Source of the DNA: Tagaea sp.
GTDB taxonomy: Bacteria; Pseudomonadota; Alphaproteobacteria; CACIAM-22H2
Assembly (NCBI GenBank): GCA_044356395.1
Contig: JBIKWI010000002.1
Span: 1,357 to 65,356 of the forward strand
DNA length: 64,000 nt
Direction of reading: 5' to 3'
Shown here: positions 1,248 through 30,022 of the stretch, piece after piece
Numbering within the stretch: position 1 is the stretch's first letter
Layout of the letters: the number at the start of each line of letters is the position of its first letter
Notes under the pieces: generated by a model
Databases searched by the model: none
Seen by the model: the letters and a program-made list of their open reading frames with translations, nothing else
What the model was told of the DNA's origin: nothing
Program-made: the position numbers and the translations under genes

Positions 1248-1553
1248 TTAGAAGTTTCCCTTTGCGGCCTCGGCCAGAATTAACTTGTCGAGCGTCAGGT
1301 CCGAGACCGCACGACGCAGCCGTGAGTTCTCGGTTTCAAGCTCCTTCAACCGCTTGACCTGGTCGCCCTTCAGCCCGCCGTACTCATTGCGCCACCGATA
1401 GTACGTAACTTCCGTTACCCCTATCGATCGCACAGCCTCCGCCACCGGTCGCCCCTGGGCCATCAGCACATCGACCTGCCGTAGCTTCGTAACGATCTCT
1501 TCCGCCGTATGTCTTTTCCTTGCCATTGCCTGTTCCTCCTTCTCCAAAACCAT
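1248..1553 (-). CDS. IS3-family transposase OrfA (HTH)
   Basis: 101 aa; typical IS3 OrfA N-terminal HTH and leucine-zipper sequence ([18 protein letters not shown]...[22 protein letters not shown]). Confidence 0.85.
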
Positions 1554-1620
1554 ACTTCAGGGAGGACCACTCAGTGGGGGCAGGTCAAAGGTTTGCGAGG
1601 ATGCAACTCAGCGCGGAGGC

Positions 1621-2472: not shown

Positions 2473-2475
2473 ACA

Positions 2476-2670
2476 ATGGAAAATTTAGCGGAGGCCTATC
2501 AGCGCTTGCTGCATCAGGTTGACCGGCGTAGCCAAGTAAGGGATGGCTCTAAGACAAATCCACGACCTGACGCCAATGTCGCCGACCGCGGCGCTGAAAT
2601 TTATAAGGACATACTGGATGAGTTTCGACGCTCCGAGCCGGACAATCCGGTAGCTGCGTTTCGGGGCTAG
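2476..2670 (+). CDS. small hypothetical protein
   Basis: 64-aa ORF 3 nt downstream of the previous gene; no recognisable family. Confidence 0.2.
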   Translation: MENLAEAYQRLLHQVDRRSQVRDGSKTNPRPDANVADRGAEIYKDILDEFRRSEPDNPVAAFRG

Positions 2671-3064
2671 ACCGTTCGTAGGTGGGGCTATTGGCGCGCG
2701 GCACGCGCTTTCCCATCGGCAATGTCGGCATGCGACGGCGGCCCCTCGAACCCAACCTGATAGTCATGGATGCCGCCCGGTTCGTCATCGCCGACTTCCG
2801 CGGCCATGCCATCAACCATGCCCGCCGGGCGCTGCACCTCCGGCCAGTCGCCATCGTGCACAGTTACCGGCTTGCGCTCCCTCGTCACTATCGGCCTCCC
2901 GACGGGCGGGGGGGGATTAGGGGCCGCCCTGCTCCGATGATTTTCGCCTAGGACGGTGGTTAAGCGTCAGTCAGGGGCGTCCGGTGAAATCTTGGCCAAT
3001 GCTTCCGCCGTGCTTCCACGGTAGGTTTCCGGATCCGATAAATCTCCGTAACTTATTGAAATAA

Positions 3065-3141
3065 TGGCGAGCCCAGCTGGATTCGAACCAGCGACCTACA
3101 GCTTAGAAGGCTGTTGCTCTATCCAGCTGAGCTATGGGCCC
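3065..3141 (-). tRNA. tRNA-Arg (anticodon TCT)
   Basis: Reverse complement GGGCCCATAGCTCAGCTGGATAGAGCAACAGCCTTCTAAGCTGTAGGTCGCTGGTTCGAATCCAGCTGGGCTCGCCA gives a full cloverleaf, anticodon loop CTTCTAA and encoded CCA. Confidence 0.85.
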
Positions 3142-3457: not shown

Positions 3458-3587
3458 GGCGAGACGCTTTTCCCCTGTCGGACGGGGGACTTTACCATCG
3501 TTTGCCCGGCAGGCAACTCCCCGGCCGCAAACGCGAAAAGGGCCGGGTTTCCCCGGCCCTTCGTCCGTCGGCAAGCGCAAGGGCGGA

Positions 3588-4292
3588 TCAGGCCACCTTT
3601 GCCTTTACCGTGCCCACGCCTTCGCAGAAGCCTTCCATCACGTCGCCACGCTTGATCGCAGCCACGCCGGACGGCGTTCCCGACATGATCAGGTCGCCCG
3701 GCTGGAGCTCGAACAGCCCCGACAGGTACGCGATCATCTCCGGCACCTTCCAGATCAGCTGGTTGAGATCGCCCTGCTGCTTGAACTCGCCGTTGACCTT
3801 GAGCCAGATCGCGCCTTTGGAGGGATGGCCGATCTGGGCGGCGGGAACGATGTCGCTCATCGGCGCCGAATGATCAAACGCCTTGCCGATCTCCCACGGG
3901 CGGCCGGCCTTCTTGCATTCTTCCTGCAGGTCGCGACGCGTCATGTCGAGGCCGATCGCGTATCCGAAGACGTGTTCGAGCGCCTTGTCGACCGGAATGT
4001 CCTTGCCGCCCTTCGAAAGCGCCACGACCAGTTCGATCTCGTGGTGCACGTTGGCGGACTTCGCCGGATACGGAAAGTCGCCGTTGCCGAGGACGAGATT
4101 GTCGGGGTTCTTCTGGAAGAAGAACGGCGCCTCCCGGTTGGGATCGTGCCCCATCTCGATGGCATGTGCGGCGTAATTGCGGCCCACGCAGTAGATCCGG
4201 TGGACCGGGAAGCGCGCCATCGTGCCGCGCACCGGCACCGAGACGGCCGCCGGCGGCGTGAAGACGAAATTCGTAGGCGTTGCGACGTTCAT
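3588..4292 (-). CDS. fumarylacetoacetate hydrolase (FAH) family protein
   Basis: 234 aa; FAH-fold signatures (HAIEMGHD, HHEIELVVAL, GDLIMSGTPSGV). Confidence 0.8.
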   Translation of the reverse strand: MNVATPTNFVFTPPAAVSVPVRGTMARFPVHRIYCVGRNYAAHAIEMGHDPNREAPFFFQKNPDNLVLGNGDFPYPAKSANVHHEIELVVALSKGGKDIPVDKALEHVFGYAIGLDMTRRDLQEECKKAGRPWEIGKAFDHSAPMSDIVPAAQIGHPSKGAIWLKVNGEFKQQGDLNQLIWKVPEMIAYLSGLFELQPGDLIMSGTPSGVAAIKRGDVMEGFCEGVGTVKAKVA

Positions 4293-4320
4293 GGTTCTTT
4301 ACCCCCTCTTTCGAAACCGT

Positions 4321-5073
4321 TCAGCGGGACGAAGCGTAGTAGTCGACCTGGCGTTCGCACCATGCCAGCGCTTCGTTGATCGCGAATGCGAATGTGAAAA
4401 TCACGAGAATGAGCGCCCAGAAATGCTCCATCAGGAAATGCGACTGGTAGATCTCGAAGAGCGTCCCGAATCCGACCACCGAGACGAGCAGCTGGCCGAT
4501 GATGACCCCCTTGACCGCACGGATCATGCCCAGACGCACGCCGGCAAGGATTTCCGGCATGGCGGCCCGCACGTAGACGCGCGAGAACGCCTGCCACGGG
4601 CTAGCACCGAAGCAGCGCGCCATCTCGATCAGCGACGGCGTGATGCCCCGCACGCCCGCCCGCGAATTCAGCACGATGATCCATATCGCGAACAGCACGA
4701 CGGTCAGCACGACCGTCTGCTCGCCGATCCCGGCGAGAACCATGATGACAGGCACGAGCGCCGAAAGCGGCGCCGAAAGGAACAGGTTCACCCAAGGCAG
4801 CAGAAGGCGGTCGGCGATCGCGACCCGTCCCATCAGGATGCCCAACGGTATGCCGAAGGCGATCGCGATCAGGTTGCCGAGCACGAAAGCGCGTGCGGTG
4901 ATGAGAAGGGCATTCCCGAACGTCGGCGTCGGGACGATCTCGAACACGCGCCAGACGATCTTCGACAGCGGCGGCAGGATCAGGCCCGCATCCGTACGGC
5001 CGGCGATCTCCCACAGCACCGCCCAGACGATGAGAGCCGCGAAGAACGGAACCCGAATGCCGCCGATGACCAT
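4321..5073 (-). CDS. ABC transporter permease (NitT/TauT family)
   Basis: 250-aa polytopic membrane protein with the BPD-transporter EAA-like loop (EMARCFGASPWQAFSRVYVRAAMPEI). Confidence 0.8.
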   Translation of the reverse strand: MVIGGIRVPFFAALIVWAVLWEIAGRTDAGLILPPLSKIVWRVFEIVPTPTFGNALLITARAFVLGNLIAIAFGIPLGILMGRVAIADRLLLPWVNLFLSAPLSALVPVIMVLAGIGEQTVVLTVVLFAIWIIVLNSRAGVRGITPSLIEMARCFGASPWQAFSRVYVRAAMPEILAGVRLGMIRAVKGVIIGQLLVSVVGFGTLFEIYQSHFLMEHFWALILVIFTFAFAINEALAWCERQVDYYASSR

Positions 5074-5088
5074 CGCCCCCGCCCTTCC

Positions 5089-5901
5089 CTAGTCGAGATA
5101 ATGCTTGAGGGTCTGCCAGATGTTCTCGACCGCGTCGAGATAGGCAGGATGACGGCGGATCTTTTCGGGGTCGCCTTCCCGGGAAATCTGGGGCTCGATG
5201 ATCGCCGAGATCCGGCTCGGCCGGCGCGACAGCAGGACGATCCGGTCGGAGACGTATACCGCCTCCTCGATGCTGTGCGTGACGAAGATGAACGTCTTGC
5301 GCTCGTTCGCCACGAGTTCGAGCATGTCCTCCTGGAACTTCCGGCGCGTCTGCTCGTCGACCGCCGAAAAAGGCTCGTCCATCATCAGGACCTTGGCATC
5401 CACCGCAAGCGCCCGCGCCAGGCCCACGCGCTGGCGCATGCCGCCGGAAAGCTCGTGCGGGAATTTCCGCTCGAATCCCTTCAGACCGACGCGGGCGATG
5501 TACTTCGCCGCAACGGCCTCGCGCTCGGACAGCGCCACGCCCTTCAGTTCGAGACCGAAAGCCACGTTGCGCATCACGTCCGCCCACGGCATCAGGGCGA
5601 AATCCTGGAACACGAAAGCGCGCTCGGGACCCGGTCCCGATACCTTGCGCCCCTCGACGAGCACGTCGCCGCCGCTCGCCGGGATCAGGCCCGCGATGAT
5701 CTTCAGAAGCGTGGTTTTCCCGCAGCCGGAAGGTCCGAGAAGCGTCGTGAGCTTGCCTTCGGGGAACTCGAGCGAGATGCCGCTCAGGGCCTCGATCCCG
5801 CCGGGATACGTCTTGATGACGTTGCGGACCTCGACGATCGGCCTGGGCGCTGCCTGGCCGGCTCTCGGGATCGACGACAGCGATATCGCGGGTTGGGTCA
5901 T
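5089..5901 (-). CDS. ABC transporter ATP-binding protein (NitT/TauT family)
   Basis: Walker A GPSGCGKTT, signature LSGGMRQRV and Walker B VLMMDEPFSAVD. Start at internal ATG 5901 overlaps the upstream permease stop (ATGA). Confidence 0.85.
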   Translation of the reverse strand: MTQPAISLSSIPRAGQAAPRPIVEVRNVIKTYPGGIEALSGISLEFPEGKLTTLLGPSGCGKTTLLKIIAGLIPASGGDVLVEGRKVSGPGPERAFVFQDFALMPWADVMRNVAFGLELKGVALSEREAVAAKYIARVGLKGFERKFPHELSGGMRQRVGLARALAVDAKVLMMDEPFSAVDEQTRRKFQEDMLELVANERKTFIFVTHSIEEAVYVSDRIVLLSRRPSRISAIIEPQISREGDPEKIRRHPAYLDAVENIWQTLKHYLD

Positions 5902-6731
5902 GCGGCGCGCTTCTCCGGCCTGAACAGCATTGCTTCGATCCGCTCGAGCGTCTCGATGAAGACTACCGACATGACCACGATCGACAGGATCGCCGCATAC
6001 ATCTTCGGATAGTCCGCGACGGACTGGTTGTACGAGATGAGATCGCCGATCCCCGTCGGGGTTATCAGAAGTTCGGCAAGGATGATCCCGATGAAACCCG
6101 CGGCGCAGCCCAGCCGCAGCCCGACGAAGATCAGCGGGCTTGCAGAAGGCAGGATCACCTTGAGAACCACCTGTCGTCGCGACCCGAGGAACGAGCGGCA
6201 CATCTCGAGCAGCGAGCCCGGCGTGTTGCGGACGGCACCCAGCGAATTGAGCACGATCACGGGCATCGCCATGATGCACACGGTCAGGACCTTGGCCGTG
6301 ATACCGATTCCGTAGGCGAATGTCAGCACGGGGATAAGGGCTGCGAGCGGTGCGGCCTGCGCCACGACGAAGATCGGCGCGAACAGCCACTCGGACGGGC
6401 CGTGAAGCCCCATGAGCAGGCCGAGCGATACGCCGATGACGACCGATACCGCCAGGCCGATCGCCAGCGGATGCAGCGTCTTCGCGAACGCGGCGGCGAG
6501 CGAGCCGTCGCCGATCATCTCGGACAGTGCCGCGATCGTCTCGCCGAATGTCGGGAACGCGGCGCTGACCGGAATGCGCCCCGCATACTCCCACGCGATC
6601 AAAGCCAGGCCGAACGAAACGACCCGCAGCACATGCGCATGCGTGAGGAAACGAGCCAGACGGCCGCCGTCGCGCTCGGGAACGGCGGGCAACGGGACTT
6701 CAATTCGCGCGGAACTGCCGGGCGCAGACAT
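5898..6731 (-). CDS. ABC transporter permease (NitT/TauT family)
   Basis: 277-aa membrane protein with an EAA-like motif (LEMCRSFLGSRRQVVLKVILPSASP). Confidence 0.8.
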   Translation of the reverse strand: MSAPGSSARIEVPLPAVPERDGGRLARFLTHAHVLRVVSFGLALIAWEYAGRIPVSAAFPTFGETIAALSEMIGDGSLAAAFAKTLHPLAIGLAVSVVIGVSLGLLMGLHGPSEWLFAPIFVVAQAAPLAALIPVLTFAYGIGITAKVLTVCIMAMPVIVLNSLGAVRNTPGSLLEMCRSFLGSRRQVVLKVILPSASPLIFVGLRLGCAAGFIGIILAELLITPTGIGDLISYNQSVADYPKMYAAILSIVVMSVVFIETLERIEAMLFRPEKRAA

Positions 6732-6802
6732 CGATCAACCATCCACTTCTGGAAAAACCGGACCGGCGGCCGCCGCCATGCGATGGCCGCCGGTCCCGGA
6801 TG

Positions 6803-7798
6803 TCAGCCTCCGACGGCCCGGCGCGCCTTTTCGAGCGGTGCCAGGTACCAAAAGTCCTCGACCTTCAGCGAAGACGCGGGACCGGTCATCTGGCCCGCCT
6901 CGACATAGAACTCGAAGTCGCTCTGCGCGACGTCGGGCCCGCCGCCGGTCGGCGCGTAGATGCCCTCCTTCGTGCCGACCTGGTAGAACTTCGTGATCCC
7001 GTCGAGGATTTCCTTCGGCTGATCCGCCATCAGACGGCGCTTGGCCCGCTCGCGCTCGACGACCGACGGATCGGCGTTCATCTCGCGCCAGAGACGCAGG
7101 AACTCGGCCACGATCGTGTCGACCTGCTTCTCGTTGCGCTGCATCCAAGCCACCTGCCCGAAGATCGTCTCGTCCGACGCCGGATTGGCGACGCCGGGCA
7201 GGACATGGAAGCGGTCACCAGCCTTCTCGAGGAGCACGTTCTTGTTCGCGAGGTCGACGATCGTCGCCTTCATCTGGCCGCGCATCATCGCGATGATGCG
7301 GTTCTCCGACCCCGGAACGTAGCTGCGGTCGCCGAACTGGATGCCTTCGCGCTTGGCGATGATGTTGCCGATCGCCTCGGTGCCGGTGCCCCGCGCATGG
7401 AAGGTGAAGGGCTGTCCGTTCAGGTCCTTCCAGGTCTTGTAGGATTTGTCGGCGACGGGGAAGAAGACGAGACGCGTCGCCTGGAAGACGACGCGGAGCG
7501 GCGCGCGGCTCTTCTGGATCACCGAGTACGGGGTACCGACACCCAGGTCGGCCTGGCCGTTGAGCACCGCCTGGATCGCGAGTTCTTCCTTGGCGAAGAA
7601 GGTGATCTCGTAGTCGACGCCCTTTTCCTTGGCGCGCTCGAGTGCCACGACCATCGAAAGCGTTTCCGTCGACAGCACGTCGCCGAACGCGATGCGGACC
7701 TTCTGCTGCGCGTCTGCGGTCCCTGTCGAGAGTGCGACCGGAACCGAGAGGAGCGCCGCAACGACGGTACGCCTCAGAAATCCGAATGCTGTGCTCAT
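6803..7798 (-). CDS. ABC transporter substrate-binding protein (NMT1/THI5-like; nitrate/sulfonate/bicarbonate family)
   Basis: Signal peptide MSTAFGFLRRTVVAALLSVPVALSTGTADA followed by a periplasmic-binding fold. Start set at ATG 7798. Confidence 0.75.
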   Translation of the reverse strand: MSTAFGFLRRTVVAALLSVPVALSTGTADAQQKVRIAFGDVLSTETLSMVVALERAKEKGVDYEITFFAKEELAIQAVLNGQADLGVGTPYSVIQKSRAPLRVVFQATRLVFFPVADKSYKTWKDLNGQPFTFHARGTGTEAIGNIIAKREGIQFGDRSYVPGSENRIIAMMRGQMKATIVDLANKNVLLEKAGDRFHVLPGVANPASDETIFGQVAWMQRNEKQVDTIVAEFLRLWREMNADPSVVERERAKRRLMADQPKEILDGITKFYQVGTKEGIYAPTGGGPDVAQSDFEFYVEAGQMTGPASSLKVEDFWYLAPLEKARRAVGG

Positions 7799-8011
7799 TT
7801 GATTTCTCCCCATCAGCGGTTTTTGGCCCGAAGCGGCGGGCTTTGCGGATTCGGTTTCAACCAATCCGATACTTATGCACTACAATTCATGGGCGACAGA
7901 CAGTCAAGAATGAAACGAAACCTGTTGGCCGATTAATGATTTGCATCTGTGAATCTAAGATTTTCGAGATCTAGATACTAAAACCAAGTTTCGAATGGTT
8001 GCCCATGTTGG

Positions 8012-11139: not shown

Positions 11140-11253
11140 GTGGACGATCTCCCTCTCGGCGTCGAGGAGGCCAGACGGCCGGCGTGCTTGTCAACTCCGC
11201 GTAAGCAGTGCGAGAGTCGCTTGCCTCGAACAACCCGCAGAACCGATGACACG

Positions 11254-11892
11254 ATGACAGATTTACTCTGGCGCTCGCTCGCGATCGGCATCGGCGCGAC
11301 GGCACTCATGGACGCCTGGGCGATCTTCCTTAACCGCGCGTTCGGAAACCCGCTACCGAACTGGGCGCTCGCCGGCCGCTGGTTCTGCCACATGACCGAT
11401 GGCAGACTGTTCCACGACGACATCGCGGCGGCGGTTCCATGGCCGAACGAACTCGCCGTCGGCTGGATCGCGCACTATGCGATCGGCATCCTCTATGCCG
11501 GCATCCTGCTCGTCGCGGCGGGACCGGAATGGGCAGCCGCACCAAGCTTCCTGCCGGCCTGGATCCTCGGGCTCGTCACCGTGGGAGCGGGCTGGTTCCT
11601 CATGCAGCCCGGTATGGGTGCGGGCTGGGCGGCTTCGAAGAAGCCGAACCCGATGCAGATCCGCTTCCTCAACATCGTCGCGCACACCGTGTTCGCGGCC
11701 GGACTCTACGGGACGGCACGGCTGATCGCCTTAACGACTGACGTTGCCGTGGACCCGGAAATCCGGCGCCCTCTTCCGGGATGCGCCCAATCGAAGAAAG
11801 CTCAATCCAATCCAAGAAATCTCGCTCGAGGTCCTTCGGGTTGGCTCTTGTCTTTTCAAATCATATCGTCATACCGTTGTGTGCTTGGCTAA
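11254..11892 (+). CDS. DUF2938-like small membrane protein
   Basis: MTDLLWRSLAIGIGATALMDAWAIFLNRAFGNPLPNW... is hydrophobic. Only this 3' part of the long ORF 10153-11892 is plausible; the rest is antisense to the aldo/keto reductase. Confidence 0.45.
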   Translation: MTDLLWRSLAIGIGATALMDAWAIFLNRAFGNPLPNWALAGRWFCHMTDGRLFHDDIAAAVPWPNELAVGWIAHYAIGILYAGILLVAAGPEWAAAPSFLPAWILGLVTVGAGWFLMQPGMGAGWAASKKPNPMQIRFLNIVAHTVFAAGLYGTARLIALTTDVAVDPEIRRPLPGCAQSKKAQSNPRNLARGPSGWLLSFQIISSYRCVLG

Positions 11893-11987
11893 AGAAGCGG
11901 CATCGAGCTAGCAGCGGTTTCCCTGCGCAACAAAAACGCTGGTGCGACGCACGTTCCTCCGCCTGTACCGGTACGCACTAACGGGAG

Positions 11988-12884
11988 ATGCCCACGATGT
12001 CCGACGCCCCGGGCCATAGCCAGCCCGTGCCATTCACCATCCGTCCGCTTTCGGACAAGTTCGCCGCCGAGATCACCGGACTGGATCTGCGCGACCCGCT
12101 CGACGCTGCCACGCGCCGGGCCGTTCTGGACGCATTGATCCGCTACAAGGCGATCTGTTTCCGCGACCAGTCCCTCAGCGGGGAGCAGCAGGTCGTGTTC
12201 ACCCAGCAATTCGGCCCGCTGGAACTCTTCACCATCGCCAACCGGAGCATCGACAACCCCCTGCCGCTGCTGAACATCGTCAGCAACCTCGGCAAGGACG
12301 GCAAGCCGACCGGCAACCTGGAGACCCGGCGCTGGCACACCGACAAATCCTTCCTCGCCACGCCCTGCTTCGCAACCATCCTGCATCCGGTCATCCTGCC
12401 GCCGGCCGGCGGCGAGACCTGCTTTGCCGACATGAGTGCGGCCTACGAGGCGATGTCGGCGAAAGAAAAGGCCGAACTCGAGAACGTCCGCGTCGTCCAC
12501 AGCCGCGAATACTCGATGCGGCGGGCCGGAAAAGTGCCCACGCCCCAGGAGATCGAAGACGCAGGCCCGCCGATGGCGCATCCGCTGGTCCGCGTGAATC
12601 CCTACTCGGGGCGCAAGGGGCTGTTCATGGGCGAGCACGCCTCGCACCTTGAAGGCCGGGAAGATGAAGGCCGGGCGCCCATCGATGCCCTCGAAGCCTA
12701 TGCGACCCAGGAGAAGTTCGTGTACCGCCATGCTTGGCGCAAGGGCGACGTGCTGGTGTGGGACAACGGCAGCCTGCTGCACCGAGGGAACGACAATTTC
12801 AATGTCGGCCTGCAGCCGCGCGTCCTGCATCGTACCTGCCTGAGCGGGCTGCTGCCGAAGCTGGAGGTTGCGGCGGCTTCCTGA
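11988..12884 (+). CDS. TauD/TfdA-family Fe(II)/2-oxoglutarate-dependent dioxygenase
   Basis: HTD facial triad (RRWHTDKSF), distal His (HPLVRVNP) and a C-terminal R (VLVWDNGSLLHRG); 298 aa. Confidence 0.8.
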   Translation: MPTMSDAPGHSQPVPFTIRPLSDKFAAEITGLDLRDPLDAATRRAVLDALIRYKAICFRDQSLSGEQQVVFTQQFGPLELFTIANRSIDNPLPLLNIVSNLGKDGKPTGNLETRRWHTDKSFLATPCFATILHPVILPPAGGETCFADMSAAYEAMSAKEKAELENVRVVHSREYSMRRAGKVPTPQEIEDAGPPMAHPLVRVNPYSGRKGLFMGEHASHLEGREDEGRAPIDALEAYATQEKFVYRHAWRKGDVLVWDNGSLLHRGNDNFNVGLQPRVLHRTCLSGLLPKLEVAAAS

Positions 12885-12987
12885 GCCGCGAATCCGGACA
12901 CCGTATCGCTCCGCCCCCACGTTGCCGCAACACGCCATGCGCCACCCGTCGACGACATTCCCGGCTGAATTTGAAGGAGAAACCCCC

Positions 12988-13956
12988 ATGAAGCGACTCG
13001 TCAAACTGACCCGGCGCAGCCTGCTGTCCGCCGCCGTGCTGCTGAGTATTGCGCCCATGGCGCACGCACAGTCCTTTCCGACCCGCGAGATCACCCTCGT
13101 CATTCCCTTCGGCATCGGCGGATCGACCGACATCATCGGGCGGCAGTTCGCCGGCGAGCTGGCGAAGGTGCTGGGCGCGAAGATCAACGTCGAGAACAAG
13201 CCCGGCGGGACGGGCACGATCGGCAGCACCCAGGTCATCCAGTCCAAGCCGGACGGCTACACGATCGGCTTCGTCGCGAACGACGCGCTGGTGTTGCAGC
13301 CACTGCTGAACCCCGCCCTCGTCTTCAAGACGCCCGACGACTACCAGCCGATCGTCAAGCTGGGCTACCGCTCCGACGTGCTTTACGTGCGCGCCGAAGC
13401 CCCGTGGAAGACCTATGCCGAGTTCTTCGCCGAAGCCAAGCAGAACCCCGGCAAGATGCGCGTGGCCATCCCCGGCGTCGGCACGCTGGGCGAACTCACG
13501 ATCCAGAAGCTGAACAAGGTGGCGGGCGTGCGCATGGTGACGGTTCCCTTCAGCGGGGGCGGCGCCGAAGCGACGCTGGCCGTGCTGGGCGGACGCGTCG
13601 AAGCCAGTGCCGGCTCGGTCTCGGTGGGCGCCGGCCAGGTTGCCGCGGGCAAGCTGCGCGCGCTCGCGGTGTTCCAGCGCGGCAAGCACGCCGTGTTTCC
13701 GGATGCGTCGTCGATCGACGACGCCCACGGCGACGTGTCGCTGCTGGCCGAGTTCTATGTCTTCGCCCCGAAGGGATTGCCCAAGGACGTGCTCGACAAG
13801 CTCGTCGCTGCCTCGATGCAGGTCGGCCGCAGCGAGGAGTGGGCGGCGTTCGCCCGGAAGCAGGATTTCACGCCCGACGTGAAGGGACCCGACGCGACGA
13901 AGGAAGACCTGCTGAAGCAGGGCAAGGACTTCGCCGAACGCCTCGCCAACAGATAG
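12988..13956 (+). CDS. tctC: tripartite tricarboxylate transporter substrate-binding protein TctC (Bug family)
   Basis: Signal peptide MKRLVKLTRRSLLSAAVLLSIAPMAHA, Bug-family core (PGGTGTIGS, GVGTLGEL); RBS GAAGGAGA upstream of ATG 12988. Confidence 0.85.
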   Translation: MKRLVKLTRRSLLSAAVLLSIAPMAHAQSFPTREITLVIPFGIGGSTDIIGRQFAGELAKVLGAKINVENKPGGTGTIGSTQVIQSKPDGYTIGFVANDALVLQPLLNPALVFKTPDDYQPIVKLGYRSDVLYVRAEAPWKTYAEFFAEAKQNPGKMRVAIPGVGTLGELTIQKLNKVAGVRMVTVPFSGGGAEATLAVLGGRVEASAGSVSVGAGQVAAGKLRALAVFQRGKHAVFPDASSIDDAHGDVSLLAEFYVFAPKGLPKDVLDKLVAASMQVGRSEEWAAFARKQDFTPDVKGPDATKEDLLKQGKDFAERLANR

Positions 13957-13974
13957 GCGGAACGCGCGCCCGCG

Positions 13975-14448
13975 ATGAACGTCACCCGCCTCCAGAAGCG
14001 CAAGGGCTACATCGCCATCGGCGCAGGCGGGCTCGTGCTTGCGGCCGGATATCTGGGTATGTCGGTGCAGCTCCCCTTCGGGGAACTGGCCCGGCCCGGG
14101 GCCAGCCTTTTCCCGATCATGGTCGGCGTCATCCTCGTGTTCGCAAGCCTGAGCACGCTGTGGGAGGGTTGGCGGACGCCGATGTCGGAACAGGTGGAGT
14201 TCCCTGTCCGCCACGACCGCCTGCGCCTGCTGGTGCTGGTGGGCGCGCTGTTCGTGTACATCCTGGCGCTGCCTTGGCTGGGACAGATCATCGCGAGTTC
14301 GCTGTTCCTGATCCTGCTCATGCGCGTTCTGTCCGACGTGGGCTGGCCGCGCGTGATCGTCTATTCGCTGATCATTTCCGGCACGCTCTACGCCGTGTTC
14401 GTGCGTCTGCTCAACGTCCCGATGCCGCGCGGCATCGTGGATCTCTGA
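13975..14448 (+). CDS. tctB: tripartite tricarboxylate transporter TctB (small 4-TM subunit)
   Basis: 157-aa hydrophobic protein between tctC and tctA. Confidence 0.75.
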   Translation: MNVTRLQKRKGYIAIGAGGLVLAAGYLGMSVQLPFGELARPGASLFPIMVGVILVFASLSTLWEGWRTPMSEQVEFPVRHDRLRLLVLVGALFVYILALPWLGQIIASSLFLILLMRVLSDVGWPRVIVYSLIISGTLYAVFVRLLNVPMPRGIVDL

Positions 14449-14464
14449 CGGAAGCGGACGCCCC

Positions 14465-15973
14465 ATGGATTCCCTCGACGGTCTCTGGTACGGGCTGAGC
14501 CTCGCCTTCACGTACCAGAACCTGCTCGCCGCATTTGCGGGCGCATTTGCCGGCACCGCGATCGGCGTGTTGCCGGGTTTCGGCCCGACCGCGGGCCTGG
14601 CACTGCTGCTGCCCTTCACCTTCTCGATGGGCCCGAGCACCGGGCTCATCATGATGTCGAGCATGCTCTATGGCGCGATGTACGGCGGCTCGACCACGGC
14701 CATCCTGATGAACATGCCGGGCGAAGCCGCTTCGGTGATGACCTGCATCGACGGCTACAAGCTCACCAAGAAGGGACGCGCCGGCGCCGTGCTGTTCATC
14801 GTCGCCGCCGGCTCTTTCATCGGCGGAACGATCTCCATCGTTGGCGTCATGCTGTTCGTGCCGACGCTCTCGCAGCTGGCCATCATCTTCGGCCCGGGCG
14901 AGTTCTTCGCGCTGACTGCGGGCGGCCTGCTGATGCTGTCGCGCATCTCGGCCGGAACGGTGGCGGCCGGACTGCTGCCGATGGCGATCGGCCTCCTGCT
15001 CAGCACCATCGGCCAGGAAGCGGTGTCGGGACAGTACCGCTTCACCTTCGGGCTCAACGACCTCAGCCAGGGGCTGGAACTGGCCGTGCTGGCGGTCGGC
15101 ATCTACGGTATCGCCGAGATCATGTTCGTCGTCGAATCGCTGGCCGGCCAGCCCAAGCCGATGCGGGTGCGGGTGCGCGAGATGCTGCCGACGCGCGAGG
15201 AGATACGACGCTCCTGGGCGCCGATGGGCCGCGGCACGATCGTCGGCTTCCTGTTCGGGCTGATCCCGGGGCCGGCCACCACGCTGTCCACCTTCACCGC
15301 GTACCGCCTCGAGAAGGCGGTTTCCAAGTACAAGGACGAGATCGGCGAAGGCGCGATCGAGGGGGTCGCCGCGCCCGAGACGGCCAACAATGCGGCGGCG
15401 ACCTCGCTGATGGTGCCCCTGCTCGGCCTCGGCATCCCGTTCAGCTCGGCGACGGCGCTGATGCTGGGCGCCATGATGGTGCACAATGTGCAGCCCGGTC
15501 CGCTGCTGATGACCAGCCACCCGGAGATCTTCTGGACCGTCATCGCGTCGATGTTCGTGGGCAACGTCATGCTGGTGGTGATCAACGTGCCCATGATCGG
15601 GGTCTGGGTCAGCATGCTGCGCATTCCCGCGTACATCCTGCTGCCGACGATCCTGATGATGGCCATCATCGGCTCCTATAGCCTGCGCAACAGCATGTTC
15701 GACGTGTCGCTGCTGCTGGTGCTCGGCATCCTGGGCTACGTGCTGCGCAAGCTGGAATTCCAGCTCGCACCGCTTGTGGTCGGCGTGGTGCTCGGACCGA
15801 TGATCGAAAAGCACTTCCGCGAAGGGCTCTACATGAGCCAAGGCGACCTTTCGGTGTTCTGGAGCAGTCCGATCGCGATCGGGATCTGGAGCCTGGTCCT
15901 CGCCGTCATCGCGCTCGGCGGCTTGACGCGCCTGTGGAAGCAGGTCTTCCCGCCGGGCGAGCGGGAAGCCTAG
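14465..15973 (+). CDS. tctA: tripartite tricarboxylate transporter permease TctA
   Basis: 502 aa; conserved TctA motifs (LPGFGPTAGLALLLP, MYGGSTTAILMNMPGEAASV, GVAAPETANNAAA). Confidence 0.85.
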   Translation: MDSLDGLWYGLSLAFTYQNLLAAFAGAFAGTAIGVLPGFGPTAGLALLLPFTFSMGPSTGLIMMSSMLYGAMYGGSTTAILMNMPGEAASVMTCIDGYKLTKKGRAGAVLFIVAAGSFIGGTISIVGVMLFVPTLSQLAIIFGPGEFFALTAGGLLMLSRISAGTVAAGLLPMAIGLLLSTIGQEAVSGQYRFTFGLNDLSQGLELAVLAVGIYGIAEIMFVVESLAGQPKPMRVRVREMLPTREEIRRSWAPMGRGTIVGFLFGLIPGPATTLSTFTAYRLEKAVSKYKDEIGEGAIEGVAAPETANNAAATSLMVPLLGLGIPFSSATALMLGAMMVHNVQPGPLLMTSHPEIFWTVIASMFVGNVMLVVINVPMIGVWVSMLRIPAYILLPTILMMAIIGSYSLRNSMFDVSLLLVLGILGYVLRKLEFQLAPLVVGVVLGPMIEKHFREGLYMSQGDLSVFWSSPIAIGIWSLVLAVIALGGLTRLWKQVFPPGEREA

Positions 15974-15993
15974 CGGCGAAACGTACGAAACGG

Positions 15994-16030
15994 TGGTCGG
16001 AGCGGAGGGATTCGAACTCTCGACATCCAG
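15994..16030 (-). repeat. 37-nt direct repeat of the tRNA-Pro(TGG) 3' end (36/37 identical to 19933-19969); candidate distal att site
   Basis: TGGTCGGAGCGGAGGGATTCGAACTCTCGACATCCAG here versus CGGTCGGAGCGGAGGGATTCGAACTCTCGACATCCAG in the intact tRNA. The sequences diverge immediately beyond 16030/19969. Confidence 0.7.
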
Positions 16031-16227
16031 AGACGAAATTCTCGGGTTCTCACTTTCGTCTTCATTGGCGTGCCGTAGTGGATGTAATGAGAACATTTGA
16101 ATGGAATCAAATAAACACGGCGGGAACGCTGACTGAAGCAAGAAGGCTGCAAGTAGCGGTTACGAACGGCCGAGAAAATCGAAGATACTGACCGCCACCG
16201 TTCAAAACGCGCCCAATCGTAACTTCT

Positions 16228-18852
16228 TCAGCAGTCTGCTACCGAATTTTTTATGGCACAAAGAACGGTCTTTTCCAGTTCATCGACTTTGTACGGCTTT
16301 CGGACAACATCGACGCCCTTCAGAGAATCGGGCAGCACATGGCGGACTTCGTATCCCGTGCACAGGACAAACGGGATGCCGCGCGCCTTCAAGGCTGCGG
16401 CAACGTCCCACGACATTTCGCCGTCCAGATTGATGTCCAACAAGGCCAAATCGAAGGTTTCAGACTCGATCAGCGCCAGCGCTTGGCGAATGCGCGACGC
16501 AGGACCGACCATCGTCCACCCGAAACTTTCGAAAACCAGCTCGAGCATGCCGACGACCAGGAACGAATCCTCTACCACCAGAACACGGAGGCTTTTGACC
16601 GGGCGCTCGGGCGCCGTCTGGCTGTTCGGGAATTCCAAGGTCGGCAACGCGGAGACCGGTTGCGAATTGGCCATCGAAGCAGGCGGCATCTTCACGCTGC
16701 AAACCACGCCCGTGGGAAGGAAGCGCAACGCCGCCTCCCCATTCGTTTCCAAAGCAAGGGCGCGCTCGATCAACGTCGAGCCGAAGCCGCAACGGGCCGG
16801 TTCGACGACCAATGGGCCGCCCGTTTCGGTCCAGGCGAGTTCAAGGCTGCCGGTCAGGCTCAGTGTCCAGCCTATCGCCACGCGACCGCCGGGGACCGAA
16901 AGAGAGCCGAACTTCGCGGCATTTGTTGCCAGTTCATGGATCGCCAGCGACAGCGCAAGCGCCGATTTCGACGTCAGAATGACATCGGGCCCAAGCAGCG
17001 TGAACGAGACTGGGTCGTTTAAATACGGATCCAGTTCTTCCCTCAAAAGGCTATTGATAGACACCCCCTCCCACCGGTTTTGGGAGAGCAGGCTATGGGC
17101 CTTTGCCATTGACTGGATACGCGCCGCCAGATCCTCGACGAAAGTTGAGAGGGATTCGGCGCTGACGCTCGTCTGGACGACAAGCGCCGCGATGTTTGCC
17201 AGCGTATTTTTCACGCGATGGTCGAGTTCAGCCATCATCAGTCGATCGCGGTTCGTGGCGATCTGCCGTTCGCGCGCGACCTCTGTGATGCGGCGAAGCA
17301 CGACGTCGAGCAGCGAGGTGCGCAAGTCGCGCGCCGCGTCGAAGTCCGGTTGCGACCATGGCATGGCCCTGCCACGTACCGTTTCCTTCCAGATCTCGAA
17401 CGACTTCCGGGGGGTAAGCGTCTCGTCGTCTGCGAGGCCTTTTTCTGGGACTTTTCTCGGCTCCCCTGCCCAAGCGGTCGTACTGACGAGTTCCGGGCGA
17501 AACCAGATGATGAAGTCCGAAGGGTCCGGGGAGACAGAGATCGCGAGCAACCCGCTGGCAACGTCGGCGAAGCTTTTCGCCTCCTCCCAGATTTCGCCGA
17601 GACGATCGCTGGCGAACACGTCTTCGCCGCCCCGCATCTCAGTATCCAGCCATGCCACGAGCCGACCGATCTGGCCTTTGTCCGGCGTTTTCCCCAGAAG
17701 CGCCACTTTCCCTTTGATGATGACCGCGACACCGCCCTGTCGAACCCCATCGGCCGAATGCTTACCGCCGTGGATGTAGTCGAGAAGATTCGGCGACTGC
17801 TCGGTAAGGCCCTGCGCGTAATCTTCGGCGCCGGCCAGGTTCAGCATCAGTCGCTGGAGGACCGTGCGGCTCGCCAGTCGTTCGGAGAATTGCTCCCGCT
17901 TTTCCATGGCCTCGACCTGGTAGGAAAACATCGAGCCGAACAACTCGCAGATCGCGCGCAGATGCCGCGGCAGACGGCGCGGCGCGTAGTGATGGCAGGC
18001 CACCAGTCCCCACAGCTCGCCGCCGCAGATAATCGAGATGGACATCGAGGCGTCGATTCCCATGTTACGCAGATACTGCCGGTGGATCGGGGACACATCG
18101 CGCAGGATCGCTTGGCTCATATCAAGCGGCTTGCCGGTACGCGGATCGTCGGTCGGCTCGAGGCGCGCTGGCTCGTAGTTGACTTGTGCGATCAGGCGCA
18201 GGCCATTTTCTATGTAGAGAGCACGCGCCTGCCGAGGGATGTCCGAAGCCGGATAGTGCAGGTCGAGAAACGACGCGAGGCCATCCCGCTTGCTTTCCGC
18301 AATGACCCAGCCTGAGCCGTCCTGCATGAATCGATAGACCAGTACCCGGTCGTAGCCGGTTAGATCGCGCACGCCTTCGGAGGCCAACTGGCACAGATGC
18401 GCGACCGAGGTGGCTTCTTCCTGGCCGACGACCAGCTCGTGCACGGCGGCGAGCGGGTCGGCGACGAACTGATCGACAATGTCGGCCTCCTCGAACTCGA
18501 GAACCAGCGCCCCATCTGTGCGGTGCATGCTTGCGTCGAGTGGACGATCGGACGCAACGCGCATCTGCGGGTCGAGCATGTGGCGCGGCTTCAGGAGCGG
18601 CAGTTTTGAACTCAGCGCGCGCAGACTGTTGATCTGCTTCGGATTGAAAATCGTCGAAACGGAGCGACCCAACAGCTCCTCAGGCGGCATGCCGAGCAGG
18701 CCGATCAAGTCGCCGGCAACCTGCAGGACTTCGAAAGTCGCGTCGTCCACCACCAGCATGGCGCCGTGCGGCACGATGGCGCCGGGGATATGGATCTGCT
18801 CCCGGTCGCAATTGGTCAGGTCGGCGGCCTCGTGCCTCTTGAAAGTCTTCAT
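16228..18852 (-). CDS. bphP: bacteriophytochrome BphP: PAS-GAF-PHY photosensory module, HWE/HisKA_2 histidine kinase and C-terminal receiver
   Basis: N-terminus MKTFKRHEAADLTNCDREQIHIPGAIVPHG with the biliverdin-binding Cys. HWE-kinase H-box (ELDHRVKNTLANIAALV) and receiver domain (VLVVEDSFLVV...LDINLDG). Start trimmed to ATG 18852 because the longer ORF overlaps bphO. Confidence 0.85.
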   Translation of the reverse strand: MKTFKRHEAADLTNCDREQIHIPGAIVPHGAMLVVDDATFEVLQVAGDLIGLLGMPPEELLGRSVSTIFNPKQINSLRALSSKLPLLKPRHMLDPQMRVASDRPLDASMHRTDGALVLEFEEADIVDQFVADPLAAVHELVVGQEEATSVAHLCQLASEGVRDLTGYDRVLVYRFMQDGSGWVIAESKRDGLASFLDLHYPASDIPRQARALYIENGLRLIAQVNYEPARLEPTDDPRTGKPLDMSQAILRDVSPIHRQYLRNMGIDASMSISIICGGELWGLVACHHYAPRRLPRHLRAICELFGSMFSYQVEAMEKREQFSERLASRTVLQRLMLNLAGAEDYAQGLTEQSPNLLDYIHGGKHSADGVRQGGVAVIIKGKVALLGKTPDKGQIGRLVAWLDTEMRGGEDVFASDRLGEIWEEAKSFADVASGLLAISVSPDPSDFIIWFRPELVSTTAWAGEPRKVPEKGLADDETLTPRKSFEIWKETVRGRAMPWSQPDFDAARDLRTSLLDVVLRRITEVARERQIATNRDRLMMAELDHRVKNTLANIAALVVQTSVSAESLSTFVEDLAARIQSMAKAHSLLSQNRWEGVSINSLLREELDPYLNDPVSFTLLGPDVILTSKSALALSLAIHELATNAAKFGSLSVPGGRVAIGWTLSLTGSLELAWTETGGPLVVEPARCGFGSTLIERALALETNGEAALRFLPTGVVCSVKMPPASMANSQPVSALPTLEFPNSQTAPERPVKSLRVLVVEDSFLVVGMLELVFESFGWTMVGPASRIRQALALIESETFDLALLDINLDGEMSWDVAAALKARGIPFVLCTGYEVRHVLPDSLKGVDVVRKPYKVDELEKTVLCAIKNSVADC

Positions 18853-19472
18853 ATCGATGTCTCCCAATCTTTGAGCCAGATCTCGAAGACTTCGAAGGTT
18901 TCCGTCGCGGCACCGACCATGGCGGCACGATCGGCTGGTTTCTCTCCCGCCGCTGCAAGACGCGTCAGAAAGTTCGCCCAGACACGACCGGTTTCGGCGC
19001 CACGGCCGGCGAAGAAACGGCGGCCGTCGAGCGTTGCTGCACCGAGCAAATGGTCGAGACTGCGGCACAGTTGGCGGCCGCCCAATGCCGATCCCTCGGC
19101 CATATACAAAGCCCCTAGCCGACGTGCGAGGCTGCCGAGGCAAGGGATATCCGCGCAGCGGCGGATCTGGTCCAGTGCCGCCGTATCGACGCCCAGCCAA
19201 CCGAGATCCTGCCCGAGCCATTGCGTGCGGGTGCAGTCTTCGCCGAGCGCCCGTTCGAAGGGCTGGTAGAATCCGTAAAGACGCGCGAGCAGCGCGCGGT
19301 AGCTGGCAAGGCCGATCGTTCCGTCCTTAACGGCCGCAAAGCCAGAATGCAGATGCAGTCGTTCGTGGTGTAATTGCGTTGCGGCGCGCACTTCGTCGCG
19401 ACACGCAATTGGATCGATACGGTGGCTGTCCGCGACGAAAGCGACTTGGCTCAAGACGGCGGCACTCGACAA
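18849..19472 (-). CDS. bphO: heme oxygenase BphO (biliverdin-producing)
   Basis: 207 aa; heme-oxygenase-like helical protein (ATQLHHERLHLHSGFAAV...). TTG start; stop overlaps the bphP ATG (ATGA). Confidence 0.7.
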   Translation of the reverse strand: MSSAAVLSQVAFVADSHRIDPIACRDEVRAATQLHHERLHLHSGFAAVKDGTIGLASYRALLARLYGFYQPFERALGEDCTRTQWLGQDLGWLGVDTAALDQIRRCADIPCLGSLARRLGALYMAEGSALGGRQLCRSLDHLLGAATLDGRRFFAGRGAETGRVWANFLTRLAAAGEKPADRAAMVGAATETFEVFEIWLKDWETSI

Positions 19473-19933
19473 CCGGCTTCTGCGCTTTCAGTCATCGAGT
19501 ATGTCTTTCTTCTTTCTTGCATTAATCAAAAGTAGATTCACGATAGCAATTTTTTCCTGAAACCACGCGCGTGGCGGCGTTGCGGGATTGGCGAAATTTC
19601 GTTGGGCTAGCTAAGCTTTGAACCGGCAGACTTATTGCGTGGGATCGAGAATACCCCATCAATACTCGACACCAATTTGATGCAGTATATCGAGGTTCTG
19701 GCTCTCCAGTACGACAAATCGGTCAGTGATCGCCGGGACAAACTTGGAGAAGTGGCCTGCACTAGGTTCCGTAGACACACAGTTAAGCTATCTGTCTCTC
19801 GAAACAAATCTCCCAAAGGTTCAGTGGCGTGCTTGAATCGAACCTGTGACTTCCGGCCCTCCAGTTATCGATGCGCGGCGTCTGGAGCGCATCAACAAGA
19901 CATCTCCAACAACTTCAATTTTAAAAGTAAACC

Positions 19934-20009
19934 GGTCGGAGCGGAGGGATTCGAACTCTCGACATCCAGCTCCCAAAGCTGGCGCTCTACCAGGCTGAGC
20001 TACGCTCCG
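19934..20009 (-). tRNA. tRNA-Pro (anticodon TGG); 3'-terminal CC is encoded but the final A is not
   Basis: Reverse complement CGGAGCGTAGCTCAGCCTGGTAGAGCGCCAGCTTTGGGAGCTGGATGTCGAGAGTTCGAATCCCTCCGCTCCGACC has C1-G72, anticodon loop TTTGGGA and one A/C mismatch in the T stem. Confidence 0.8.
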
Positions 20010-26885: not shown

Positions 26886-29836
26886 CTAGTCGGCAGCCTG
26901 CCCGGCCCGGCTGCCGGCGGCGGCAAGATGGCGCACGACGAGTGCGAGCAGCGCATCCTTGCGGAACGGCTTGGAGATGAAGTCGTCCATGCCGGCGGCT
27001 AGTGCGGCTTCCCGGTCCGTCTCGAACGCGTTCGCGGTGACCGCGACGATGGGTACGCCGGCCCCGTCGCCGTCGAGCGCCCGGATCGCGGCGGTCGCCG
27101 CGTAGCCGTCCATCTCCGGCATGTTGACGTCCATCAGGATCAGGTCGTAGGGCGCCACGCGCTGGGCTTCGACCGCCTCAAGTCCGTTGCCCGCCGTGTC
27201 GACGCGCAGGCCGATCGGCTCGAGCATCGCCGACACGATCAGCCGGTTGGTCTGGTTGTCCTCCGCCAGGAGGATGCGCAGCGGCCGGCTGCGCGCGCGC
27301 GAAAGCCGCTCGATCTCGCCGGCCCAGTCCACGTTGCCGGGCTTTGCGTCGCTCTCGACGCTCGCCTGGGTCAGCAGAACATCGAACAGGAAAACGCTTC
27401 CCTTGCCGGGGGTGCTTTCGGCCCGCAGCTCGCCGCCCATGCGCGCGACGAGACGGCGCGAGATGGCAAGGCCCAGACCCGTGCCGCCGAAGCGCCGCGC
27501 GATCGACCCGTCGAGCTGCTCGAACTCGCGGAACAGGCGCGGCAGGCGGTCGGCCGGAATGCCGATGCCGGTATCACGCACCGAGAACCAGCCGCGGATC
27601 CGCCCGTCGGGCTGCACGCGCGCCGACGCCTCGACCCGCACGCTGCCCTGCTCGGTGAACTTGATCGCGTTCGACAGCAGGTTGAGCAGCACCTGGCGCA
27701 GGCGGCCGGGATCGCCGCGCAGGCGCTCGGGAACGTCGCCGTTCATCTGCCACTCGAGCGTCAGGTTCTTCGCCTTCGCGCGCGCCGCGACGATTTCGAT
27801 GGTCGAACGGACGAGCGCGTTGAGGTCGAAGGCGAGATCCTCGAACTCCAGCCGTCCCGCCTCGAGCTTCGAGAAGTCGAGCACGTCGTTGATGATCTGC
27901 AGCAGCGAATCCGAGGCGTCGCGGATGGAATGCACGTAGAGCCGCTGCTGGGAATCGAGGGCGGTGTCCAGCAGCAGGCTCGCCATGCCCATCACGCCGT
28001 TGATCGGCGTGCGGACCTCGTGGCTCATCGTCGCGAGGAAGCGCGACTTGGCGTCGCTCGCCGCCTCGGCCGTTTCCTTGGCCTGCGTCAGCGCGCGGGT
28101 CGCCGCGATGTCGGCGGTCACGTCCTGCAGCAGGTGGATCTCGCCGCCGCTCGCCGTCGAGAAGCCGATCCCGCGGATCGTCGGCCATCGGCGAGATGCC
28201 GGTCGTAGGGCACGCCGCCGCGCACGACGAACGACAGCCGGTCGACGACCCACGCTTCGCGCTCCGCGGCCGGCACGGCGAACAGCGGGGCGGCGGCGTG
28301 CAGATGCATCAGGTCGTAGGCGAGCATGCCGACCTCGATCTGCCCGCGCACGTGCGGATACATCTCCTCGTACTTGCGGTTCCACATCAGGACCCGCCGG
28401 CTGGCGTCGAACATAAGGAAGGCGTCGCGCAGCGCCTCGATGCCGTCGCGCAGCGTGCGTTCGCTGTCCTCGGCGCGGATCTTCGCGATGGCGAGCGCCT
28501 GGCGCGCTTCCATCTCCTCGGTCATGTCGCGCCCGGAGCCGCGATAGCCCGCGAACCGTCCCGCGTCGTCGAAGATCGGCTTGCCGCTGATCGACAGGAA
28601 GCGGCGCCTTCCGATCGCGTCGAACCGCTCGTAGCGGAAGTCGCGGAACGCCTCGCGCCGTTCGAGCTGGGCGCGGTGCGCGGCCCACCCGCTTTCGTCC
28701 ACGCCCATCACGCCCAGCTCGTCGCGCCGCATGCCGTACTGCGATTCCGGCTGCGTGCCGGAAAGCCGGTAGTTGGAATCCGAAAGAAACGTGAAGCGCA
28801 GATCGGCGTCCTGCTCCCAGAACCAGTCGGCGGTCGTCTCGGCGAAATCGCGGAAGCGCCGCTCGCGGTCCAGGATCGCGTGCTGGGCGGACTCCAGCTC
28901 GTCGAGCCGTCGGCGCAGCAGCCAGGCCATCGCGAATACCGCCAGCGAGGCAAGCAGGGCGGCCCCCACGATAGGCACGTCCATGGCCCGCGCGTGCGCC
29001 GCCATGTCGGCGGCGGCGATCTCGACGAAGATGGCGATTGGCCATTCGCCGATCCATTCGAAGGCCGCCAGCCGGTCGACGCCGTCGATCGGCGTCGGCG
29101 CGCGCACGAGGGCACCGCCGTCGGCGACGAGTGCCGCCCACGCCGCATGGCCGCGAAGATCGTGGACAGTGGCATCGACATTGCCGCCGGAGGAAACGCG
29201 TACGCGCGTCAGCCCATCCTGCCCGACCAGGCCGACGGCGCCGTCGCTGCCGAGATCGACCGCCGAAGCGATCGCGAGAAGGCGCGCCGGCATCATCGAG
29301 ACCACGACGACGCCCTCGAACGCGCCCGACGGGCCGTCGATGCGCCGCGACAGCGGGATCGAATTGTTGTTCGACACGCGGCTCACGCGCGGCGCGCCGA
29401 GGAACGGAACGTCGCCGGTGCCGTCGCGATGGAAGACGAAGAAGTCCCGGTCCGCGACGTCGGCCGTTGCGGCGCTCGTGCCCGACACGGCGACGAGATT
29501 GCCGGCAGCGTCGGCGACGGCGACGAAGTCGATCAGCCCCGGCGCCGAGGCGGCGAGACGGTCGAGCAGCTCGGCGTCGAGACCCGACATGCGCCGATGG
29601 AAGGTGACGGCAAGCCGGGCGATGCGGTCGACCGATTCGAGCGTGCGCTCGACGCTCTCGCGCGAAAGCCGGCACGTCTCCATCAGCGACTGCGTGGCGG
29701 CTTCGACGGAATGCGTGCGCTGCGAATGGAGGGCGACACCGGCAAGCGCCCAGATCATGCCGGCGACGGCCAACGCGATCGCCAGCACCCGATCCACGCG
29801 CACATGCACGAAGGAGGCCCGGCGCGGAACGCTCAT
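26886..29836 (-). pseudogene. hybrid sensor histidine kinase/response regulator (Cache-TM-PAS-HisKA-HATPase-REC) interrupted by a -1 frameshift near 28185-28200
   Basis: N-terminal part (29836-28118: dCache-like periplasmic domain, TM, PAS) ends ...RHLADGRRSAG* in one frame. The kinase continues in the -1 frame as ...TIRGIGFSTASGGEIHLLQDV...ATMSHEVRTPINGV... through HATPase and receiver to 26886. No start codon is available for the downstream part. Confidence 0.6.
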
Positions 29837-30022
29837 GATCGATGCACCCGCATAATCCCCCGCACATCGTCGAGGATAGGCTTTCGAGCCTAACGGGGCA
29901 AGTTCCGCGACGCGGCCCGTACTTGCACGCGATTTGCCCCTCCGCTACAACCCGTACGACCGGGGATGGCGCGAAAGAACCATGTTTTCAGCGCCCCCGC
30001 AGGCACAAAACGGGAGGAAACC

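Follow-up and report, generated by a model that had tools for sequence, protein, structure and literature searches.

We describe here an islet of 3.9 kb (positions 15995-19933) within a 64,000-nt stretch of Tagaea sp. contig JBIKWI010000002.1 (assembly GCA_044356395.1; the whole 64-kb stretch is hereafter ‘the window’), which carries a heme oxygenase gene and a bacteriophytochrome gene—bphO and bphP, together bphOP—and abuts a tRNA-Pro(UGG) gene. With a probability of about two in three, we read this islet as a decayed integrative element of the cis-mobilizable element (CIME) type, inserted site-specifically into the 3' end of the tRNA gene; a tyrosine-type integrase was presumably the agent, and bphOP probably the cargo of the element that left a partial copy of the tRNA, DR1, at the far end of the islet. 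Observed directly are the repeat, the gene content, the absence of bphOP from this locus in related genomes, the point at which similarity to those genomes breaks off, a deviant base composition and a series of population variants.

Working from the tRNA outwards, the intact tRNA-Pro(tgg) gene (19934-20009, minus strand) is called by ARAGORN, with Rfam in agreement at 65.5 bits. The last 36 nt of its CC-terminated body, tRNA positions 40-75 (a stretch that begins in the 3' strand of the anticodon stem and reaches CC), recur exactly and in the same orientation 3.9 kb away, such that 15995-16030 is identical to 19934-19969. The first-pass annotation had reported a repeat of 37 nt and left open whether further copies exist: the repeat is real, consisting of 36 exact nucleotides followed by a mismatched 37th base (T at 15994, C at 19933), its second 37-mer copy lying at 19933-19969 rather than 19934-19970 (an immaterial shift), and only two copies of the 36-mer occur in the 64-kb window, where the chance expectation is 0 (none in 100 shuffles). 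The distal copy thereby ends ...CCGACCA (CCA) and the intact gene ...CCGACCG (CCG). On the inner side the likeness breaks off sharply (AGACGAAA versus CTCCCAAA); as homology stops abruptly at tRNA position 40, in the anticodon stem, the repeat is no part of a longer tRNA duplication, and a tandem or longer duplication, the competing origin named by the first-pass annotation, is ruled out as its source. Read in the orientation of the tRNA, the order is tRNA, island, copy of the tRNA 3' end—the canonical geometry of tRNA-associated islands. Older, degenerate tRNA-Pro fragments were found neither at the left edge of the 8.8-kb variable region described below nor in the relatives, with as many as 12 mismatches tolerated in 44 nt, or 9 in 36 nt.

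Between the two copies there are only bphP, bphO and two spacers, which together fill the interval exactly; open reading frame (ORF) and domain calls agree with the first-pass annotation that precisely two genes, a heme oxygenase and a bacteriophytochrome, are enclosed. bphO lies directly upstream of bphP, the stop of the former overlapping the start of the latter by 4 nt. BphP has the domain order PAS_2-GAF-PHY-HWE_HK-Response_reg, that is, a photosensory core (Pfam E-values of 3e-21, 3e-15 and 4e-50 for PAS_2, GAF and PHY, respectively) followed by an HWE histidine kinase and a C-terminal receiver, and its sensory core matches bacteriophytochromes in the PDB with E-values as low as 1e-118. 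Its N-terminal Cys15 sits in ...DLTNCDREQIHIPG... (sequence TNCDREQIH) and is, we presume from general knowledge of the family, the site of biliverdin attachment. In the distal arm there is an 8-nt inverted repeat (16031-16038 / 16054-16061); the proximal spacer holds a 69-aa ORF (19607-19816, minus strand), called as a gene in metagenome contig L129, which has no family match and may be spurious.

As the first-pass annotation had stated, the islet holds neither an integrase nor an excisionase: none was found with Pfam among its ORFs or in six-frame fragments of both spacers, nor is an integrase relic detectable in either spacer. Phage structural genes, conjugation genes and recombinases are likewise missing within 15995-19933, and the only traces of mobility at the islet are insertion sequence (IS) insertions in population variants. 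A motif, GGCGTGCCGTAGTGGATGTA / GGCGTRCCGTAGYGGATG, recurs by junctions of mobile DNA: at 323-342, just outside an IS at the start of the window; at 16067-16086, 36 nt inside DR1; and at 13979-14014 of metagenome contig L029, after an IS-like fragment. The idea that the copy at 16067-16086 is an IS end was rejected, as the inverted repeats of the window-start IS are 351-374 / 1564-1587, with the motif copy at 323-342 outside them.

The composition of the islet departs moderately from that of its surroundings, with a GC content of 59.4% against 66.7% for the window; in GC at third codon positions (GC3), flanking genes average 0.845 +/- 0.054 against the values given for bphP and bphO in Table 1. 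In a collection of 5.8 billion proteins, which includes the genomes of the related loci discussed below, the best BphP from outside this population is 74% identical, and nothing falls between 74% and 100%; this ceiling contrasts with the flanking proteins, which are 78-98% identical to those of the relatives. The 73-74% homologues occupy other genomic contexts: the bphO-bphP pair of a Telmatospirillum metagenome-assembled genome (MAG) lies between a photolyase-related gene and guaA, and that of another genome between polA/DTW and PIN genes. An exact look-up of BphO returned window-like contigs only. None of the 38 loci with BphP relatives adjoins a tRNA-Pro. A tRNA gene of another kind lies no more than 160 nt from the bphP stop in four of the 38 (Table 1), which by rough estimate is above chance, hinting that the bphOP module is often found at tRNA-linked variable sites, on contigs too short for a repeat search.

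Related genomes were reached through homologues of the O-methyltransferase gene that adjoins tRNA-Pro, giving six loci in five genomes (L037-L042; L numbers denote related loci and contigs throughout) in which synteny is kept on both sides but bphOP is missing, contrary to the prospect, raised in the first-pass annotation, that all relatives might carry it here. In every one of the six, tRNA-Pro(tgg) is followed by the methyltransferase gene, and similarity with the window breaks off 1-3 nt beyond the tRNA 3' end (at 19930-19932), except in the closest relative, L037, where it extends to 19916, about 18 nt beyond. It resumes at an aldo-keto reductase gene (about 11140-11155) or, in L037, after a gene for a DUF2938 protein. 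What lies between reductase gene and tRNA differs from one relative to the next: nothing at all in L040, where the site is fully empty and only 35 nt separate the tRNA from the reductase start codon; a 168-aa ORF in L038; an amidohydrolase (Amidohydro_2) in L039; an Amidohydro_2 amidohydrolase plus a polysaccharide lyase in L041 and L042; and a truncated DUF2938 gene plus a pentapeptide-repeat protein in L037. No second tRNA-Pro fragment is present in the relatives, and the tRNA-proximal DNA of the window, of the relatives and of a new insert found in metagenomes (below) shares no homology beyond A/ACC. The relatives' sequences comprise ERZ26867466 ctg28190 and ctg28248, ERZ25074234 ctg13298, GCA_016794005.1 and GCA_016195065.1. 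One further contig, with a 98%-identical methyltransferase, ends before it reaches the tRNA. Since similarity breaks at the tRNA end and content differs by relative, the tRNA-Pro 3' end is, as judged from these alignments, a hot spot of replacement.

These comparisons, together with the population variants described next, support the attL/attR geometry of tRNA 3'-end integration proposed in the first-pass annotation, while qualifying its picture. The repeat-bounded islet stands, but is only the inner, tRNA-proximal part of a larger variable region (11156-19930, 8.8 kb). An empty site does exist, in L040, though between the reductase gene and the tRNA; tctA directly followed by a full tRNA, the arrangement which that annotation had envisaged, was not found, metagenome contig L030 offering a hint alone. 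Finally, the distal copy does read CCA and the intact gene CCG, as noted there, but the argument built on this—that the incoming element supplied a slightly different 3' end—is weakened, as the relatives without the islet all end CCG like the intact tRNA-Pro of the window, making the distal CCA the odd end.

Near-identical (99.9-100%) metagenome contigs, found through exact matches of their proteins in several JGI, ENA and Logan samples, provide a view of the islet across a population. Both of its junctions are reproduced at 99.95-100% identity in independent contigs (L015, L017, L027, L028 and others): the tctA-DR1-bphP junction is crossed by at least seven independent contigs from different samples, and two (L015 and L017) span the spacer-tRNA-methyltransferase junction without a break. 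As the junctions recur in this way, the islet is no assembly artefact. An exact-pattern scan for the tctA-DR1 junction in a separate collection of metagenome contigs, one without this population, gave 0 matches.

Two contigs, L016 and L022, follow the window as far as 19931, beyond which they have unrelated DNA joined to the full tRNA; beside the tRNA, this new arm has three tandem CCTGTATAAA-like repeats, resembling arm-type sites, and an ORF oriented away from the tRNA. In the same sample as L016 (ERZ27272100), contig L025/L027 shows the order tctA-DR1-bphP-bphO-spacer, followed by a 44-nt tRNA fragment comprising positions 32-75 only (19934-19977), which abuts the bphOP spacer, and then by other unrelated DNA. 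From their sequences, the L016 and L025 junctions appear to be attL and attR of one more insertion, which would have created a 47-nt repeat (19931-19977), and are presumably the two ends of one element; the resulting order—tRNA, new element, repeat, bphOP islet, DR1, tctA—appears to represent tandem accretion in part of the population. As the same tRNA end abuts different DNA within the population, the proposed insertion process appears to be still operating. Scans of viral contigs with both new-junction sequences gave 0 matches, and no attP-type junction is present among the contigs examined. An initial label of the insert's tRNA-proximal ORF as the N-terminus of an integrase was dropped, there being no match in any library or collection tried.

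Other variants record erosion of the islet. An IS3-family element, whose OrfA has an HTH_Tnp_1 domain and contains MPRKGFTEEQIAF..., is inserted at 19755/19756 in the proximal spacer in at least four contigs (L018, L019, L021 and L023) plus six similar ones, which explains many of the contig breaks. In L029 (JGI 3300037508) a degenerate IS3-like fragment (L029 13821-14059) splits bphP at window position 18284; as bphP is interrupted, the photoreceptor would be inactivated in this part of the population.

In the mechanism that we propose, the incoming element would have borne a sequence identical to the final 36 nt of the tRNA, and recombination inside this stretch would have restored the tRNA at the proximal end (attL, 19934-19969) while leaving the displaced tRNA end as DR1 beside tctA (attR, 15995-16030). 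The recombinase gene would have been lost later, or its product supplied in trans, leaving the intact bphO-bphP operon. BphO is predicted to convert heme to biliverdin; BphP would bind the biliverdin and signal via its HWE histidine kinase and fused receiver. Later still, a further element would have settled between tRNA and islet, and IS elements would have struck both the spacer and bphP.

A number of points weigh against this account. The islet has no integrase gene or relic, and since no recombinase was found in either the islet or the new insert, we infer rather than observe integrase-mediated insertion. An intact bphOP-carrying element with an integrase was not met among the 38 related bphP loci, in most of which the neighbouring genes were not scanned for integrases. 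The strict form of the empty site, in which tctA would run straight into the full tRNA, did not turn up among the metagenome contigs; the sole hint of it is in L030, whose last 2 nt past DR1 (CT) agree with the tRNA body and not with the islet. The new insert is unassembled in its interior, so that the link between its two junctions is presumptive, and its tRNA-proximal ORF has no match in Pfam, NCBIfam, PHROGs, a plasmid tblastn, the 5.8-billion-protein search or viral contigs. Lastly, as all relatives end CCG, the CCA of DR1 demands an extra, earlier event; the host trailer may already have been unlike that of the relatives before integration, for example if it was replaced when the neighbouring TauD-TctCBA genes arrived.

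The same observations can be assembled differently. DR1 could be the scar of some other, vanished element, with bphOP arriving separately through IS-mediated or illegitimate recombination, or through homologous replacement beside the tRNA; neither an integrase nor an attP-like partner is tied to bphOP, IS elements and the unexplained recurrent motif are at work within and near the islet, and the locus is a replacement hot spot with other content in each relative. We nevertheless consider separate arrival unlikely, as bphOP and its low-GC arms exactly fill the interval between the repeat copies, and the 36/36 identity of DR1 combined with a non-ameliorated GC3 points to one recent event. At this locus the relatives have neither bphOP nor TauD-TctCBA, and DR1 ends in a CCA trailer that, unlike every relative's CCG, looks as if it belonged to the tctA-tRNA junction of another background; both facts would suit an import in which a related donor, already carrying the tRNA integration, passed on all 8.8 kb (DUF2938/TauD-TctCBA-DR1-bphPO-spacer) at once through homologous recombination in the conserved flanks, so that this lineage itself would have seen no site-specific event. 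Such an import merely shifts the integration event into the donor, and it sits poorly with a GC3 that is host-like for TauD-TctCBA (0.85-0.92) but not for bphOP, suggestive of unequal residence times, and with a DUF2938 gene shared with L037 at 91% identity, so that part of the block is ancestral; we hold it to be distinctly unlikely.

Less probable again, to the point of being hard to credit, is a history in which bphOP is ancestral at the locus and was lost repeatedly in the relatives, DR1 being the leftover of a partial tRNA duplication. The bphO-bphP pair is indeed widespread in Rhodospirillales-like genomes, but at least four to five independent losses would be needed, each ending at the tRNA 3' end; the 74% identity gap of BphP and the deviant GC3 speak against it as well, and the repeat stops at tRNA position 40, matching the identity block typical of integrase target sites. 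Misassembly or a chimera at the repeated stretch of tRNA, to which the many metagenome contigs that break in or near the region might have pointed, is rejected: both junctions are reproduced at the near-perfect identity given above, and the breaks are due to real variants (the IS and the new insert).

Within our preferred reading, that of a decayed element inserted at tRNA-Pro, there is room for a bolder proposal, which we regard as doubtful: that the bphOP islet still works as a cis-mobilizable cassette, co-excised with the element that integrates at tRNA-Pro in this population via the outer repeats (the tRNA copy and DR1) and spreading in this way among freshwater Rhodospirillales. The proximal ORF of the new insert might then encode an undescribed recombinase or recombination directionality factor. 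Were this so, the metagenomes would have captured an accretion-mobilization cycle in an environmental alphaproteobacterium.

Table 1. Positions of the islet, its repeats and adjoining features (window coordinates, except in the last four rows, which give coordinates in the loci named)
Feature	Position	Strand	Description
Outer variable region	11156..15994	(+)	DUF2938, TauD, TctC/B/A; host-like GC3; no terminal repeat
DR1	15995..16030	(-)	Exact copy of tRNA-Pro positions 40-75; putative distal attR-like scar; base 15994 gives CCA
Distal non-coding arm	16031..16227		197 nt, 48% GC
bphP	16228..18852	(-)	Bacteriophytochrome, 874 aa; GC3 0.75
bphO	18849..19454	(-)	Heme oxygenase, 201 aa; GC3 0.67; PF01126, E-value 6.5e-14
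Proximal spacer	19455..19933		479 nt, 48% GC; spot usual for an integrase gene
tRNA-Pro(UGG), intact	19934..20009	(-)	3' 36 nt (19934-19969) are the attL-like repeat copy
47-nt repeat of additional insert	19931-19977		Within/at tRNA-Pro; seen in sample ERZ27272100
tRNA-Trp near bphP stop, L055	3476-3553		
tRNA-Leu near bphP stop, L060	2947-3030		
tRNA-Leu near bphP stop, L065	2687-2770		
tRNA-Arg near bphP stop, L062	2264-2340		

The outer part of the variable region is missing at this locus in the relatives, save for the truncated DUF2938 gene of L037. Its TauD-TctCBA segment (11922-15974) has about 84% nucleotide identity to modules in Tagaea, Telmatospirillum and Acetobacteraceae MAGs, with TctA at 91-93% amino acid identity, and may be an older horizontally acquired module, despite its host-like GC3 and the lack of a repeat. 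The MAGs returned by the TctA scan have the TauD-TctCBA block alone in common with the window, showing no flanking synteny and no tRNA-Pro downstream; they were accordingly discarded as evidence for an empty site.

Three further observations concern the surroundings of the islet. At the left end of the window, similarity to all relatives begins exactly at the 3' end of a tRNA-Arg(tct) gene (3064/3065). Upstream of it, the window has an IS3-family IS (the window-start IS introduced above; OrfA with HTH_Tnp_1, OrfB with rve) and ORFs without a family match, where the relatives have Cys_Met_Meta_PP/PRA-CH genes instead; region 1-3141 has the look of another tRNA-linked island, one continuing beyond the window's left edge. 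An ABC-transporter/FAA-hydrolase cluster (3558-7990) is found in the window and L038 but is missing in L037, L039, L040 and L041, making it one more segment of variable presence in this neighbourhood. On the other side, a conserved dCache/PAS/HisKA/receiver kinase gene (26886-29837) is odd for the genome in its composition by codon position (GC1 0.81, GC2 0.62, GC3 0.68), although it is syntenic in all relatives.

How, then, does the islet compare with known systems? One class of tRNA integration sites, reportedly set out by Williams in 2002, is centred on the anticodon loop. Set against this class, the 47-nt repeat of the new insert starts at the anticodon loop and overshoots the tRNA by 3 nt, and DR1 reaches from the anticodon stem to CC. 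As to the cargo, a bphO-bphP pair with an HWE kinase and a receiver as output is what we take to be the Agrobacterium Agp2-type architecture; the window operon is alike in the heme oxygenase gene that overlaps bphP upstream, the PAS_2-GAF-PHY core, the N-terminal Cys, the HWE_HK domain and the receiver, and differs from known bphO-bphP operons in that its BphP is only 74% identical to the nearest database relatives. Photoreceptor genes on islands are known from before, bacteriophytochrome-like sensors having been described on an island of Psychroflexus torquis (PMC3914696).

With tRNA-linked islands and islets in general (Hacker and Kaper 2000; Juhas et al. 2009, PMC2704930) the islet shares a tRNA 3'-end site, direct repeats, deviant GC, absence in close relatives, a size below 10 kb (3.9 kb between the repeat copies, 8.8 kb for the whole variable region) and IS elements nearby; it differs from such islands in having no integrase and a repeat of 36 nt, longer than the often-quoted 16-20 bp. 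Apart from the missing integrase, its features agree with how tRNA-linked islets (PMC2704930) and CIMEs (PMC5704250) have been defined in print, and that lack is what marks out a CIME. The CIME model comprises three steps, namely integration, decay to a CIME and accretion (PMC5704250), and the pattern seen here agrees with it; as in the CIMEs of the Streptococcus thermophilus ICESt1 family (PMC5704250), our islet is bounded by attL-/attR-like repeats that come from the target's 3' end, is without integration and transfer genes (holding only bphO and bphP), and has an apparent newcomer at the att site adjoining the target gene, in the order tRNA, new element, repeat, old islet, repeat. It differs from that family in its Rhodospirillales-like alphaproteobacterial host from freshwater metagenomes and in its cargo, a photoreceptor operon; and no related intact integrative and conjugative element or integrative and mobilizable element was met among viral contigs or the 38 bphP-related loci, the latter with the limit on neighbour scanning noted earlier.

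We thus have a clean, well-bounded case in which a light sensor and the enzyme that makes its chromophore would have been added to a genome via a hot spot of integration at a tRNA. The case is of use in teaching, in the annotation of genomic islands without an integrase and in grasping the patchy distribution of bacteriophytochromes. Related contigs show apparent successive stages of the process: an empty site, varied cargoes, a decayed islet, fresh accretion and erosion by IS. Measured against the systems above, the islet leaves current concepts unchanged and its type is in itself ordinary and known; what makes it of interest is chiefly the view, within one population, of accretion and erosion at a single tRNA.

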